DNA of 64,000 bases from an uncultured Bacilli bacterium (GTDB lineage Bacteria; Bacillota_I; Bacilli_A; RF39; UBA660), in contig CAKOHW010000004.1 in assembly GCA_934086185.1 (NCBI GenBank), positions 47,318 to 111,317 of the forward strand. The letters are read 5' to 3'. Positions 13,282-17,319 of this stretch are shown one piece after another. A program made the translations under genes and the position numbers. Below the pieces are notes generated by a model that was given only the letters and a program-made list of their open reading frames with translations, was not told where the DNA came from and searched no databases. The first letter of the stretch is position 1; each line of letters begins with the position of its first letter.

Positions 13282-14469
13282 ATGAAAGGTACATATGTTG
13301 AAATTAATTTAGATAATATTAAACATAATGTTAGTGAGATAAAGAAAAAATATAGTAATTATGATTATTATATTGGGGTTGTTAAGGGGGACGCTTATGG
13401 GCATGGAGAATATGTATCTCGTATACTAGAGGAAAGTGGAATTAATTATTTGGCTGTTAGTAGTTTGAGAGAAGCTCATAATGTTAGGAAGTATAATAAA
13501 GATATGCCTATTCTTTTATTAGAACCTATTCATATTAGTGAGTTGAAAGATGCTATAAATAATAATTTAACTTTAGTTATACATGAGTTAAGTTATGCTA
13601 AAGAATTAGTTAAAAAAATAAAAAAAGATATAAAAGTTCATATAAAAATTGATTCTGGAATGGGTAGATTAGGTTTTACAGATAAATATGAATTAAGAGA
13701 ATGTTATAATTTGTTAAGTGAAAATAAATATATTAATGTTGAAGGTATATATTCTCATTTTGCTACTATTGGATTATTTGATAAAAGATGGGATATTCAG
13801 TTGGAAAGATTTAGAGATATTACTAGTTTAATTAATATATATGATATTCCTATTAGACATATGGGAAGTAGCATAACTTTATTAAGTCATCCTAAGATAG
13901 ATTTTTGTAATGGAATCAGAAGTGCTACTTTAATGTTTGGATATAATATTTCAATTAATGAAAGTAATGTTGGTTTAAAAAATAAATTGAGAATATTAAG
14001 AAATAGAATATATCAAAAAAAATATAAAATTAGTGAGTGTTATACTAATGTAGAAATAGATGTTAAGAATTGTATGAGATTTTATACTGATATTTTAACA
14101 ATTAAAACTATTAAGTCTGGAGATTATATAGGATATGGTGCAAAAGTTAAAGTAGAAAAAGATACTAAGATAGCGGTATTGCCTGTAGGTTATGATAATG
14201 GCATTGGTATAAAAAATATTAATCGTTATGTACTTATTAATGGTAAGAGATATAATGTATTATGTGGTGGAATGAATATGATGACTATTGAAGTAGATGA
14301 TAGTGTTAGTATTGATGATAAAGTAACTTTAATGGATGGTAAAAATATTCAGATAGGTACATTAGGTAGATTTGGTGGTAAAACTATGCATGAAGTTATG
14401 TTAGATATTGGTAAGAATAATATTAGAGTTTATACTAAGAATGGTGAAATAGAATATATAGAAGAATAG
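13282..14469 (+). CDS. alr: Alanine racemase
   Basis: PLP-lysine motif VVKGDAYGHG; C-terminal VLPVGYDNG block; about 390 aa. Confidence 0.85.
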   Translation: MKGTYVEINLDNIKHNVSEIKKKYSNYDYYIGVVKGDAYGHGEYVSRILEESGINYLAVSSLREAHNVRKYNKDMPILLLEPIHISELKDAINNNLTLVIHELSYAKELVKKIKKDIKVHIKIDSGMGRLGFTDKYELRECYNLLSENKYINVEGIYSHFATIGLFDKRWDIQLERFRDITSLINIYDIPIRHMGSSITLLSHPKIDFCNGIRSATLMFGYNISINESNVGLKNKLRILRNRIYQKKYKISECYTNVEIDVKNCMRFYTDILTIKTIKSGDYIGYGAKVKVEKDTKIAVLPVGYDNGIGIKNINRYVLINGKRYNVLCGGMNMMTIEVDDSVSIDDKVTLMDGKNIQIGTLGRFGGKTMHEVMLDIGKNNIRVYTKNGEIEYIEE

Positions 14470-14479
14470 TAGGTGTAAT

Positions 14480-15499
14480 ATGGGAGTTACTAGATGGCTT
14501 TTAAGAAAAATTGGTAGTATTAATCATGATAGAATGAATAAAACATTAGATGTTATACAAAAAGAAAACAATAAATCTAGATTTTATATTAAATGTGATA
14601 TGATTAAATGTTTTATTACTAGGGGTAGTGGATATACTGATTATTTTAGAGGTAATTATATAAATTTAAGTAAAGAAGAAAAGAAAACTTTTTTTACTGC
14701 TAAGTCTTTTTATAAGTTTTTATCTTATATGAATGATAAGAGATATGAAGTTATATTAAATGATAAGTTAGTATTTAATAACTATTTTAGTAAATATATT
14801 AATAGAGATTGGATTAATTTAAGAGTTAGTAGTTTAGAAGATTTTAAAAAGTTTTTAATAAATAAAGATGTAGTATTTGCTAAGATTGCTAATGGTGAAG
14901 GTGGACATGGTGTTAGTAGAATAGTTGTTAAAGATAGAAAAATTGATGATTTATATAAAGAATTATTAGATAAAAAACAATTCTTGGTAGAAGATGCTAT
15001 AAAACAAAGTGATGAAGTTAATGAATTAAATCCTAATGTAGTTAATTCTTTTAGAATTATAACTATTTATAAAGATGGTAAAGTATATATAGTTAATAAT
15101 GCTTTTAGAGTTAATCAAGATGAATCTAATGTTATTGGATGTACTAATGATATTTATTTTAGTATGAATGAAGATGGTATTATAGATAGCAATGTTATTG
15201 ATGATTTTGGTAATGTTTATTTAGAACATCCATTAACACATAAGAAATTTAAAGACGTTAAAATTAGTGGAGTTAAAGAAGCTTTTTCGCTAGTAAAAAA
15301 ATTACATTTAGAAATACCAGAGATGCGTTATATAGGATGGGATATTGCATTTACTAATGATGGGGTAGAATTAGTAGAAGGAAATGAATATCCAGGTTAC
15401 GGAATAATACAATTTTATAAATTACATAATAAAAATACTGGTCATTTAAAAGAAGTAAAAGATATTTTAGGTGAAGAATTTGATAAAATTAAATTATGA
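14480..15499 (+). CDS. ATP-grasp domain protein (sugar-transfer-associated ATP-grasp family, putative amino-acid ligase)
   Basis: About 340 aa; ATP-grasp-like C-terminal half (FRIITIYKDG...GWDIAFTNDGVELVEGNEYPGYG); coupled 10 nt after alr. Confidence 0.5.
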   Translation: MGVTRWLLRKIGSINHDRMNKTLDVIQKENNKSRFYIKCDMIKCFITRGSGYTDYFRGNYINLSKEEKKTFFTAKSFYKFLSYMNDKRYEVILNDKLVFNNYFSKYINRDWINLRVSSLEDFKKFLINKDVVFAKIANGEGGHGVSRIVVKDRKIDDLYKELLDKKQFLVEDAIKQSDEVNELNPNVVNSFRIITIYKDGKVYIVNNAFRVNQDESNVIGCTNDIYFSMNEDGIIDSNVIDDFGNVYLEHPLTHKKFKDVKISGVKEAFSLVKKLHLEIPEMRYIGWDIAFTNDGVELVEGNEYPGYGIIQFYKLHNKNTGHLKEVKDILGEEFDKIKL

Positions 15500-15759
15500 T
15501 GCTATGAATTATATGTTTTTTTGTCTAAAATTAAAATAATATTATAATATTTAAGCTTAAACGTTTTTTTAAACGTTTTTTTTAATTTTTTGAACAAAAA
15601 ATAAGATTCGATATATTATTAAATGGTATATTTAATATGAAGAAGAGATAGTAATAGGTTATTAATTAAAGAGTTTGAGTTTAAGTAACCATTTTATTAA
15701 ATCTTATGGTATCAATCACAATTATTAATGATTGATATTTTTTGTTAGGAGTGTTTATA

Positions 15760-17319
15760 ATGATAAAATTAGTTTTACCAACAAAAAAATATGAAAATAG
15801 TTATTATGAACTCATTGATTCTGCTAAAAAATATTATGAATATGAACAATTAGGAAATGCAAGATTAAAAGAAAATGAAACTTTTAGAGATATGCTAAAA
15901 AGATTAAGCAAAAGAAGAAGAGGAATAAATATTAATGAAAATGATGTTGCTTCAGAAGTTTACTTTATAATTAATAATGAGGATATAGTTGGTATAGTTG
16001 ATTTGAGAAAAAGATTAAATAAAAATTATTTTACTAGACTTGGTCATGTTACAATTTTTATAAAACGTGAAGAAAGAAACAAGGGTTATGCTACTGAAGT
16101 TTTAAAGTTAACAAAAAAGAAATATGCTCAAAAATACGTTACTGATATATTGATATCTTGTTATACAGATAACTATGCTTTTAAAAGAGTTATAGAAAAA
16201 AATGGTGGAGTATTAAAGTCTACTTATTTAGATAAAATTATATATACACCAAAAGAAGTATCTAAATATATTATAAATACTAGAAAAGATATTGTTCCTG
16301 TTGTTGCTTGGTTTATATTAGAAGATAATAATATTGATTTTGATAAGTTTAAAAAATATGTAGATAGATTAGTTAAATATAATATAAAAAAAATTATACT
16401 TATTGGAGGTAATGTTATAAATTATAATAATATTATTGATATGATAAGTTATATAAAAAAATATAATATTACAGTTTCTATGATTGGAAATGAATATTTG
16501 TTTTCTGATTATGAAATTAGTAAAAAAATTGTTGATGTTGGATTAGATAATTGTAGTTTTTTTGTAGATAATTTTGATAATTTTGATGATATTGTTAAAA
16601 GTTATAACAATTTAAAAAAAATGGGAATAAACGTATTTATATCTTATACATTATCAGATAATAATTATAGTAAGTTTGATAAATTTATTGAATTGATTCA
16701 AGAAAATGAACTAAATAATTTATCGTTTCAATTTTATAATCCTTTTCTAAAAGTTAGAAATTGTAATAAAGTTAGAGTTAAAGATTTATCTTTATTATGT
16801 ATGTATGCTTTTAATAAATTAAAAAATACTAATTTAAAATTTAAATTTGAAATGTCTATTCCGTTATGTGGTATTAATAATGATGTATTAAATGAAATGA
16901 TAGATAAGAAATGTATTTTTTCGTGTTACTATATTTTAAATGGTAGAAGTATATTTTTCGATAGTAATTTTAATGTTGTATCTAATTTTAATGGTAAATT
17001 ATTTGATGATAATATTAAGGTTAATGAAAATAATATTTTGGAATTTTGGAATAGTGAATATATGAATAATTTTAGAAGTAGTTTAAGAAAGTATCCTAGT
17101 TTAGAATGTGAAAATTGTAAGTTATGTAAATATTGTAGTAAGGGATTATTACTTAAATGGTTGTATAAGTTAAATAGTATTGATTTGTTTGATAATGAAT
17201 TTAAAGCAATAAGAAATGATGATATGTTTCTTTCTTCGTATTTTTTGAAATACGATGTTGGTTATAATTATTATAGTAGTAATGATGATATTTATTATAT
17301 TAATTGGAAAAATTTATAA
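15760..17319 (+). CDS. Fusion protein: N-terminal GNAT acetyltransferase plus a C-terminal TIM-barrel-like, Cys-rich domain (SPASM-like, no rSAM CxxxCxxC)
   Basis: GNAT block VGIVDLRKRL...RNKGYATEVLKL; C-terminal C-x2-C-x2-C-x2-C (CENCKLCKYC); RBS-supported ATG at 15760. Confidence 0.45.
   Translation: MIKLVLPTKKYENSYYELIDSAKKYYEYEQLGNARLKENETFRDMLKRLSKRRRGININENDVASEVYFIINNEDIVGIVDLRKRLNKNYFTRLGHVTIFIKREERNKGYATEVLKLTKKKYAQKYVTDILISCYTDNYAFKRVIEKNGGVLKSTYLDKIIYTPKEVSKYIINTRKDIVPVVAWFILEDNNIDFDKFKKYVDRLVKYNIKKIILIGGNVINYNNIIDMISYIKKYNITVSMIGNEYLFSDYEISKKIVDVGLDNCSFFVDNFDNFDDIVKSYNNLKKMGINVFISYTLSDNNYSKFDKFIELIQENELNNLSFQFYNPFLKVRNCNKVRVKDLSLLCMYAFNKLKNTNLKFKFEMSIPLCGINNDVLNEMIDKKCIFSCYYILNGRSIFFDSNFNVVSNFNGKLFDDNIKVNENNILEFWNSEYMNNFRSSLRKYPSLECENCKLCKYCSKGLLLKWLYKLNSIDLFDNEFKAIRNDDMFLSSYFLKYDVGYNYYSSNDDIYYINWKNL

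Follow-up and report, generated by a model that had tools for sequence, protein, structure and literature searches.

The locus at positions 13282 to 17319 raises the question of why an alanine racemase-type gene lies between a flippase gene and an ATP-grasp ligase gene, and to what acceptor the D-amino acid made by such a racemase would be joined. To address this question, we analyzed the window, a 64-kb stretch of DNA that was the accessible sequence of this genome and, for other genomes, flanking sequence reaching about 10 kb at most; the synteny sample comprised 80 independent species loci from genomes of 20–60% GC. Open reading frames and profile searches agree in placing four genes, all on the + strand, where the sequence-only reading had put them. 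These encode a 14-TM MOP-family flippase of 544 aa (11644–13278; Polysacc_synt, MatE and MurJ matches), an Alr-type PLP-dependent racemase of 395 aa (13282–14469; TIGR00492), an ATP-grasp carboxylate-amine ligase of 339 aa (14480–15499; PF14397 ATPgrasp_ST) and a GNAT (RimJ/RimL-like) domain fused to a degenerate radical-SAM/SPASM region (15760–17319; Acetyltransf_3). Only 3 nt separate the MOP stop codon from the racemase start and 10 nt separate the racemase stop codon from the ATP-grasp start, and an AT-rich spacer of 260 nt (15500–15759) separates this operon from the next gene. The MOP gene is probably the first in the operon. That the MOP, racemase and ATP-grasp genes form a three-gene operon tailoring a cell-wall precursor is a proposal to which we give an even chance.

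The spacer contains promoter-like sites at 15521–15548 and 15732–15761, and we found no terminator-like hairpin within it. The reading frame beyond it runs from 15742 to 17319 with a likely ATG start at 15760 behind AGGAG, giving a 519-aa GNAT fusion that is called likewise in four contigs of the window's species. This protein matches Acetyltransf_3 (33.9 bits, cutoff 25.4); its Radical_SAM score of 23.2 bits is under the cutoff of 29.5, and SPASM is also sub-threshold. When aligned with relatives of 37–48% identity that carry TCNNKCNWCYA, the fusion has CxxxCxxC deleted and several SPASM cysteines lost. It has its own small family, found in unrelated contexts. The sequence-only reading had counted the GNAT fusion as a member of the cluster; however, it is missing from all 80 species loci, its occurrence in the genomes examined is confined to the window's own species, it sits behind the 260-nt gap, and a NUDIX gene replaces it in a relative with a 74% identical ATP-grasp protein. 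Thus, the GNAT fusion is a neighbour that lies outside the racemase/ATP-grasp unit. The septation ring regulator gene ezrA (9860–11584, + strand; PF06160, 2.7e-95), upstream of the MOP gene, had also been included, and this does not hold either: its adjacency is confined to the window's species and L089, and the other loci lack it, a lineage-specific arrangement. The window also carries, some 4.6 kb before the MOP gene, a VCA0040-like (DUF368) undecaprenyl-phosphate translocase-like gene of the lipid-carrier cycle (6120–7016, + strand; PF04018, 5e-57), which we note as context only. The same family occurs upstream of ezrA in L089 and in a cluster in L098 that consists of an ATP-grasp::MurT fusion, GatD, MOP and PAP2.

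To classify the ligase, we compared it with ATP-grasp subfamily profiles, as the sequence-only reading had recommended. It matches PF14397 (2.4e-34; 119.2 bits against a gathering threshold of 31.4), and neither Dala_Dala_lig_N/C nor any NCBIfam Ddl model was hit. Centrally and C-terminally the protein has the ATP-grasp fold, the conserved N-terminal domain (residues 1–105) is all-helical, and no TM segments were found. The nucleotide-binding residues, on which the earlier proposal depended, are intact: the phosphate-binding Lys135, the GEGGHG loop (G139–G144) and the VEDAI hinge (E171) are unchanged across 21 homologues, as are R283, D288, E300 and N302, and the ExNxxPG motif may supply the Mg ligands. 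In E. coli DdlB, the counterparts of Lys135, of the loop and of the hinge are K144, SSVG and E180–L183 (LIEKWL). The closest structures are RimK, LysX, ArgX and GshB (glutathione synthetase), enzymes that couple an amino acid to the carboxylate of a peptide, although sequence identity is only 12–14% and the N-terminal domain is not common to them; the amino acid ligases BacD and DcsG are also structural neighbours. PF14397 comprises about 7,400 representative sequences, and we found no biochemical characterization of any member. We take the family to include Bacillus halodurans TupA (teichuronopeptide) and possibly the Campylobacter glucuronate amidoligase Cj1438. Within it, the racemase-linked ligases form one tight 50%-identity cluster (628 bits, compared to 330 or less for the rest of the family), for whose members we found neither a PDB sequence match nor an NCBIfam model nor any literature. 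Over genomes of 20–60% GC these ligases stay 52–65% identical to that of the window and are always more conserved than the racemase, which fits an invariant, complex acceptor. One homologue adjoins a lysine-2,3-aminomutase-like gene, suggesting that the gene next to a PF14397 ligase supplies an unusual amino acid.

To determine whether the racemase and the ligase belong together, we looked at their linkage across the 80 species loci. At 51 loci the racemase gene immediately precedes the ATP-grasp gene on the same strand, and at 10 it is divergently transcribed, so that the two are linked at 61 of 80; at 18 loci there is no racemase within 6 kb. In the nearest outgroup ligase clade (41% identity), the ligase has a racemase partner too, with the order reversed. 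An independent metagenome scan found the ATP-grasp gene immediately after the racemase for 14 of the 17 members of this racemase clade and for none of 63 other Alr, and the pairwise identities of the two proteins co-vary (Spearman 0.78). The 18 loci without a nearby racemase are what one would expect if a housekeeping alr had simply come to lie beside an unrelated gene, but such a coincidence is already contradicted by the synteny data and we give it almost no credence: the linkage spans two classes with otherwise different flanks, it recurs in reverse order in the outgroup, and the co-occurrence of the ligase with this racemase clade is almost exclusive. Chance falls far short of explaining the adjacency, and the two genes are a unit conserved across gut Clostridia and Bacilli. 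The neighbourhood comparison therefore bears out the sequence-only reading in treating them as a functional pair.

The racemase scores 216.7 bits against TIGR00492 (cutoff 168), and its second-best NCBIfam match is the VanT-G catalytic domain. The catalytic residues, PLP-binding Lys35 and Tyr285, are unchanged in 50 clade members, and the MDQ motif of canonical Alr is an invariant MNM in this clade. The inner-layer gate Tyr that enforces alanine specificity (Tyr354 in G. stearothermophilus) is missing in the window's racemase; the gate residue is His370, which aligns with AlrTt Gln360, and most of the clade (37 of 50 members) has Ala there. Alr specificity is broadened when a residue other than Tyr occupies this site (PMC4517790). 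Because its gate residue differs from the canonical Tyr, the racemase may not be strictly alanine-specific. Clade members are 40–49% identical to the window's racemase while the 63 other Alr are at 32% or less, and by these sequence comparisons the racemase is a separate, divergent clade that travels with the ATP-grasp gene. There is no second alr inside the 64-kb window.

The MOP protein, which had been described as a 14-TM flippase upstream of the racemase, shows about 14 hydrophobic segments in a hydropathy scan and matches Polysacc_synt (1.9e-18; 67.3 bits, cutoff 28.2), MatE and MurJ PF03023 (4.1e-7; 29.4 bits, cutoff 27.4). Its best NCBIfam match is SpoVB TIGR02900 (9e-35; 120.3 bits, below the cutoff of 372.3), and the MurJ equivalog TIGR01695 gives 43.5 bits, short of 235.55. 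It looks like a Firmicute MurJ/SpoVB-type lipid II flippase and not Wzx; because neither model is matched at equivalog level, assignment as a lipid II flippase rests on context. MOP homologues of 34–69% identity abut the ATP-grasp gene or its MurT-fused form at further loci (L016, L025, L052, L054, L076, L089, L095/96, L098, L112, L113 and L115), and the adjacency of MOP and ATP-grasp is seen again in five different gene orders.

The ligase is also linked to the lipid II isoglutamine synthase MurT/GatD. We found no murT or gatD in the 64-kb window. At eight of the 10 loci where the racemase is divergent, we confirmed a murT-gatD-ATP-grasp arrangement in eight species, with gaps of 2–83 nt overall and of 2–13 nt in six of them. 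Homologues that are 31% identical to the window's ATP-grasp protein are fused to MurT, as ATPgrasp_ST::MurT proteins in two separate 50%-identity clusters, each followed by GatD. Beside each of these clusters is a MOP protein 38–45% identical to that of the window, and one of the two is also near PAP2 and an UndP-translocase-like gene. MurT/GatD work on lipid intermediates rather than on soluble precursors (PMC4155827). Because the racemase-ligase unit repeatedly adjoins or is fused with lipid II enzymes, the D-amino acid is most likely added to a cell-wall precursor.

The sequence-only reading had left two acceptors side by side, an exported glycopolymer and a lipid-linked precursor. In its glycopolymer form, D-Ala would be placed on teichuronic acid, teichoic acid or a capsule or other lipid-linked repeat and the MOP protein would be of the Wzx type, which we regard as unlikely. 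PF14397 is named as a sugar-transfer-associated ATP-grasp family, a homologue of 38% identity clusters with two GT2 genes, a pyruvyl transferase gene and a GH25 gene, fusions to a GT2 domain and to PGA_cap occur in one homologue each, and tandem ATP-grasp proteins are common, as would be needed to build peptide side chains. Since other members occur in polysaccharide clusters or in GT2 and PGA_cap fusions, PF14397 is not limited to peptidoglycan. Such neighbours belong to more distant homologues, and no glycosyltransferase was identified beside the racemase-linked clade: no glycosyltransferase or sugar-nucleotide gene is among the recurrent or Pfam-annotated neighbours at the 80 loci (most neighbours have no domain annotation), and in the window there are no glycosyltransferase or sugar-modifying genes in the operon or within 10 kb, the nearest being an MGDG-synthase-like gene 10 kb away. 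The recurrent partners are instead murT/gatD, MurJ/SpoVB-like MOP, PAP2 and MurA, and 52–65% identity over two classes is unexpected if the acceptor is a strain-variable polysaccharide. The MurT/GatD and MOP links point to peptidoglycan lipid II over a separate exported glycopolymer. Thus, with recurrent MOP adjacency, murT-gatD-ATP-grasp operons and ATP-grasp::MurT fusions behind it, the lipid-linked acceptor stands and is probably then flipped, while the separate glycopolymer does not.

The pairing with an Alr-type racemase also fits an enzyme that acts earlier in the pathway. Like Ddl and the VanT/VanG pairs, the ligase belongs to the ATP-grasp superfamily, has the same ATP-binding Lys, Gly-rich loop and hinge, and has an Alr-family racemase as its partner, to which it is tightly coupled. 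It could therefore make D-Ala-D-Ala, D-Ala-D-Ser or another D-Ala-D-X for MurF, a role that we consider doubtful; equally doubtful in our view is that, with its dedicated racemase, it replaces or supplements canonical Ddl in the manner of a VanT/VanG-type pair. The very high conservation of the ligase fits an essential enzyme, the VanT-G match and the non-canonical gate residue are in keeping with this role, and neither the window nor some 1 Mb of flanks showed a canonical Ddl, although these flanks come from partial genomes and are uninformative on Ddl absence. MurC-Ddl fusions are known, so fusion to a Mur-type ligase is compatible with a Ddl-like role. Against this, hhalign against E. coli DdlB gives only a local match of 57 columns at 0.8% probability, and no Pfam or NCBIfam Ddl model is matched. 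The canonical alpha/beta N-domain, which is part of the Ddl D-Ala site, is replaced by the helical domain, and this domain is common to homologues beside aminomutase, glycosyltransferases and MurT, which suggests that it recognizes a large acceptor shared by these enzymes rather than a second D-Ala. The murT-gatD and MOP flippase operons likewise indicate the lipid II stage. The stronger form, in which the ATP-grasp protein of the R. bromii group and several uncultured gut Bacilli is a non-orthologous Ddl replacement, or a constitutive D-Ala-D-Ser-type ligase served by a racemase of relaxed specificity, appears to us decidedly unlikely. The literature yielded no data on the composition of peptidoglycan in R. 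bromii or in ligase-carrying MAGs.

We put at roughly even our preferred reading, in which the ligase attaches the D-amino acid from the racemase (D-Ala, possibly D-Ser) to a peptidoglycan precursor before flipping. The small D-amino acid supplied by the racemase would by default be D-Ala, with D-Ser as a possibility. The cytoplasmic ATP-grasp enzyme would form an acyl-phosphate and then an amide bond between the D-amino acid and lipid II or its UDP-MurNAc-peptide forerunner, either at the side-chain amine of residue 3 or at a free carboxylate of the stem peptide, and the MurJ/SpoVB-type flippase would export the modified precursor. We infer the amino acid used, the acceptor, the modified position and the order of this step relative to MurT/GatD. 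Like MurT/GatD, the ligase would work in the cytoplasm and both would tailor stem-peptide carboxylates, but MurT has a Mur-ligase fold and the ligase an ATP-grasp fold. A soluble product, such as a cytoplasmic D-amino-acid-containing dipeptide or metabolite unrelated to the envelope, would suit a soluble ligase without TM segments and with BacD and DcsG as structural neighbours; we consider it very unlikely, as there are no biosynthetic-cluster genes nearby, the contexts are core housekeeping and cell-envelope genes, and the MurT fusions would be hard to explain.

The preferred reading has a precedent in RacD (racemase) and AslA (ATP-grasp ligase), which are encoded in one operon and whose ligase works in the cytoplasm, joining the D-amino acid to a peptidoglycan precursor (PMC4155827). 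The locus follows RacD-AslA and Racfm-Aslfm (D-Asp; Lactococcus, Enterococcus faecium) in gene logic and in predicted chemistry, and the co-transcription typical of RacD/AslA is matched by the 10-nt gap in the window and by the 51 same-strand loci. Where that system uses an Asp/Glu-type racemase, the window has a PLP-dependent one of the Alr type, and the ligase is a PF14397 member with a helical N-domain that matched no NCBIfam model, those for D-aspartate ligase included. The overall logic would thus be that of RacD-AslA, carried out by a probably unrelated ATP-grasp family.

Ruminococcus bromii, a culturable species, has a keystone role in starch degradation in the human colon. The other carriers of the racemase-ligase unit are abundant uncultured gut Bacilli. 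The tie between this unit and lipid II enzymes predicts an undescribed peptidoglycan modification, which could change NOD1/NOD2 recognition and sensitivity to lysozyme and glycopeptides. If the Ddl-replacement reading were true, a nearly universal, drug-targeted wall step would be done by an unrelated enzyme family. If the predicted modification is real, it would be the first biochemical role for a clade of the large PF14397 family.

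In the window, which is very AT-rich (GC of ~23%) and has a Bacilli-like housekeeping content (ezrA, ileS, metG, scpAB, lexA, and dxs), we found that all open reading frames named in the sequence-only reading are real and lie where it had placed them. The MOP flippase gene (11644-13278) encodes a 544-aa protein with ~14 hydrophobic segments that matches the Polysacc_synt, MatE, and MurJ profiles; its best NCBIfam model is SpoVB, at a score below cutoff, and PDB sequence searches with the protein gave no match. The gene for an alanine-racemase-family enzyme (13282-14469, 395 aa; TIGR00492, 216.7 bits versus a cutoff of 168) begins after a gap of 3 nt and is followed 10 nt later by the ATP-grasp gene (14480-15499, 339 aa; PF14397 ATPgrasp_ST, 2.4e-34). 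Because these gaps are so short, the three genes look like a single operon. The ATP-grasp gene is followed by 260 nt of AT-rich sequence that holds promoter-like sites, and beyond this spacer is the ORF of a GNAT fusion (15742-17319). The probable start codon is ATG 15760, which is preceded by AGGAG and agrees with the 519-aa genes called in same-species contigs from human gut metagenomes; in the 519-aa product, Acetyltransf_3 scores above cutoff, and Radical_SAM and SPASM score below it. We found no murT, gatD, or CofE-like gene in the window. A sporulation-specific role was considered since SpoVB is the best match of the MOP protein and dpaAB adjoin in some Clostridia; it was rejected as unsupported because no sporulation genes are seen in the window and gene contexts are variable.

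The GNAT fusion had been proposed as a member of the cluster, and this did not survive comparison with other genomes. It is present in 0/80 independent species loci that carry the ATP-grasp gene, and NUDIX and phosphodiesterase genes replace it in L089, a related species whose ATP-grasp is 74% identical, so we regard it as a bystander. The fusion family is tiny (21 proteins; relatives P0273-P0286 and L099/L100). Relatives at 37-48% identity keep the radical-SAM motif TCNNKCNWCYA and the SPASM cysteines; in the window protein and its 75-96% identical relatives, a deletion removes the CxxxCxxC motif, SPASM cysteines are lost, and there is a C-terminal extension of ~30 aa. Judged by these residues, the GNAT::radical-SAM/SPASM fusion in the window is a decayed copy, and on the strength of synteny and the decayed radical-SAM half we rejected it as a tailoring acetyltransferase of the pathway. 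An intact relative has GNAT and NUDIX genes around it and a 50-aa ORF after it, with no racemase or ATP-grasp gene nearby; the 50-aa ORF may point to a RiPP-like maturase system.

Other features of the window were recorded as well. There is a perfect TTGACA-17-TATAAT promoter at 17329-17357, upstream of ileS. Rfam at gathering thresholds detected no T-box or other leader in the whole window (places listed for this check: 17320-17586, 32433-32638, and 49155-49470), despite the presence of ileS, metG, and a trpS/tyrS-type gene. Two large paralogous proteins of 711 and 611 aa (7596-9731 and 54890-56725; 40-56% identical) each have a single TM or signal segment at the N-terminus, and neither has a convincing Pfam domain; they are probably secreted or located at the cell surface. 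The stretch from 35988 to 43000 starts with tRNA-Arg(CCT) (35988-64), continues with minus-strand ORFs without Pfam matches, loses GC skew, and contains a tyrosine integrase (41448-42614); it may be an integrated mobile element.

When we scanned one genome per species, the ATP-grasp gene was found in 125 species, including Ruminococcus bromii ATCC 27255, Ruminococcoides intestinale, many 'Ruminococcus sp.' MAGs, and MAGs labelled Bacilli, Tenericutes, or Erysipelotrichaceae. Among the 80 fetched loci used for synteny counts, the racemase gene is directly upstream on the same strand in 51, divergent and ~2.3 kb upstream in 10, and absent within 6 kb in 18; upstream sequence is lacking in one. 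Other flanking genes vary widely among these loci, whose GC spans 20-60%. In pairwise comparisons, ligase identity and racemase identity co-vary (Spearman 0.78) and the ligase is always better conserved (58% vs 45% between low-GC and high-GC groups), and the nearest outgroup ATP-grasp clade (41% identity) is likewise paired with a racemase, in the opposite gene order. With 61/80 loci linked and identities that co-vary, the functional pairing suggested by the sequence-only reading holds, and chance adjacency of the two genes, which the synteny data contradict, is extremely improbable. The adjacency of ezrA, also drawn into the earlier proposal, is lineage-specific, and ezrA does not belong to the unit.

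A highly conserved 232-aa CofE/F420-ligase-like protein is encoded beside the ATP-grasp or racemase gene in 19/80 loci from both classes (L022, L056, L073, and 16 high-GC loci, e.g., L046 3899-4597). We considered it as a third component of the unit and dropped it because its family is much broader (1,861 matches, about 70% identity) and occurs elsewhere, in another species, just before a VanW/PG_binding_4/G5 gene; it may be cell-wall related. Single loci showed further variation. In one low-GC MAG the ATP-grasp gene is present in three tandem copies, with no racemase gene within 6 kb (L067 3756-7011), and in two MAGs the upstream racemase is split in two frames (L038 4822-5971 and L049 4876-5992), either as a pseudogene or through assembly error. 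Between window 9805-15489 and L089 5292-11013, nucleotide identity is 82-85% for ezrA (90% in protein), only 67-73% for the adjacent MOP and racemase genes, and 72-78% for the ATP-grasp gene, a mosaic pattern that suggests recombination or an unusual constraint on EzrA.

The ATP-grasp protein looks catalytically competent. The FAK-x3-GEGGHG segment, the VEDAI hinge, R283, D288, E300, and N302 (the last two within an ExNxxPG motif) are invariant in 21 aligned homologues (56-82% identity), and when profiles are compared, K135, the glycine-rich loop, and the hinge line up with K144 and LIEKWL of E. coli DdlB; the nucleotide-binding residues are thus present. In an AlphaFold model (mean pLDDT 85), residues 1-105 form an all-helical domain in front of the ATP-grasp core, where the usual alpha/beta N-domain would be, and the protein has no TM segment. 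PDB sequence searches gave no match, NCBIfam has no model for it, and literature searches on PF14397/ATPgrasp_ST, on MurT with ATP-grasp, and on R. bromii peptidoglycan, Ddl, and muropeptides found nothing relevant. The family is small and tight: 504 matches among 5.8 billion proteins, the best 120 of the 504 all at least 56% identical. In a 50%-clustered library, full-length racemase-linked ATP-grasps fall under a single representative that scores 628 bits; the full-length representative ranked after it reaches 330 bits, and the wider family has ~7,400 representatives.

A metagenome scan seeded with the racemases gave a bimodal outcome: 17 loci are 40-49% identical to the window racemase and 14 of them have the ATP-grasp gene immediately downstream, and the other 63 loci are at most 32% identical, with the ATP-grasp gene in 0/63. 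By sequence, the racemase belongs to a separate clade. Within the clade the catalytic Lys and Tyr are invariant, and an invariant MNM takes the place of the canonical MDQ motif. At the inner gate, where the Geobacillus enzyme has Tyr354 and AlrTt has Gln360, the window racemase has His370 and 37/50 clade members have Ala. According to the AlrTt study, non-Tyr residues at this position broaden specificity, with 28% relative activity on L-Ser, and the His-bearing DadXTt is broader still (PMC4517790). Since the clade has a non-Tyr gate, D-Ala as the product is only a default assumption.

The acceptor of the ligase is probably a peptidoglycan precursor; lipid II is indicated by three independent types of linkage, namely murT-gatD operons, MurT fusions, and recurring MOP adjacency. 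Eight high-GC species have a divergent alr next to the order murT-gatD-ATPgrasp, with gatD-to-ATPgrasp gaps of 2-13 nt in six and 67-83 nt in two. ATPgrasp_ST::MurT fusions of 786 and 788 aa make up two separate clusters at the 50% identity level; over 313 residues, helical N-domain included, their ATP-grasp portion shares 31% identity with the window protein. The first fusion lies in the context MOP - fusion - GatD - ... - MurA, and the second in fusion - GatD - MOP - PAP2 - patatin - VCA0040-like UndP translocase. Five different arrangements place a MOP protein from the same subfamily as the window's (34-69% identity) beside the ligase or its fusion (MOP-alr-ATPgrasp, MOP-ATPgrasp, alr-ATPgrasp-MOP, MOP-fusion, and fusion-GatD-MOP). 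A VCA0040/DUF368-type undecaprenyl-phosphate translocase-like gene lies near the fusion in L098, and another is at window 6120-7016, ~4.6 kb upstream of the MOP gene. MurT/GatD act on lipid intermediates, not on soluble nucleotide precursors (PMC4155827), and this and the window VCA0040-like gene fit the lipid II reading.

The sequence-only reading had D-Ala ligated onto an exported glycopolymer or lipid-linked precursor. The name of the PF14397 family speaks for decoration of another glycopolymer, as do distant members, which occur in polysaccharide clusters, as tandem ATP-grasps, or fused to GT2 or PGA_cap domains; neighbours of the racemase-linked clade give no support, with no glycosyltransferase or sugar-nucleotide genes identified among its domain-annotated recurrent neighbour clusters, and we consider this decoration quite unlikely. 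The lipid-linked target stands, and it is more likely to be peptidoglycan than a different polymer. One distant homologue adjoins a lysine-2,3-aminomutase-like gene, which fits a family rule that the adjoining gene supplies an unusual amino acid. That the ligase is so well conserved in two classes, and that homologues with other amino-acid donors have the same N-domain, would be easier to reconcile with an invariant complex acceptor than with a second free D-Ala or a polysaccharide that differs between strains. It is unlikely that the enzyme is a non-canonical D-Ala-D-X ligase working in place of Ddl or alongside it; tblastn with E. coli DdlB found no canonical Ddl in the window or in the ~1 Mb of flanking sequence, which are partial genomes, so this result carries no weight. 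A soluble metabolite as the product is very unlikely.

Taken together, these data make it about an even bet that the racemase-ligase unit adds a D-amino acid to a peptidoglycan precursor before flipping. In this mechanism, built on the observed gene identities, intact motifs, and linkages, with the amino acid, acceptor, position, and order relative to amidation inferred, the racemase would supply a small D-amino acid, the ATP-grasp enzyme would form an acyl-phosphate and attach the D-amino acid through an amide bond to the stem peptide, either on lipid II or on the UDP-linked molecule that precedes it, and the MurJ/SpoVB-type MOP protein would flip the product. The operon logic is that of RacD-AslA, in which an aspartate racemase works with an ATP-grasp D-aspartate ligase to build the L-Lys-D-Asp bridge (PMC4155827). 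Compared with known racemase and ATP-grasp tailoring systems, this proposed one has an ATP-grasp of a different family and a racemase of a divergent clade. The prediction is testable, as R. bromii is a culturable gut keystone species.
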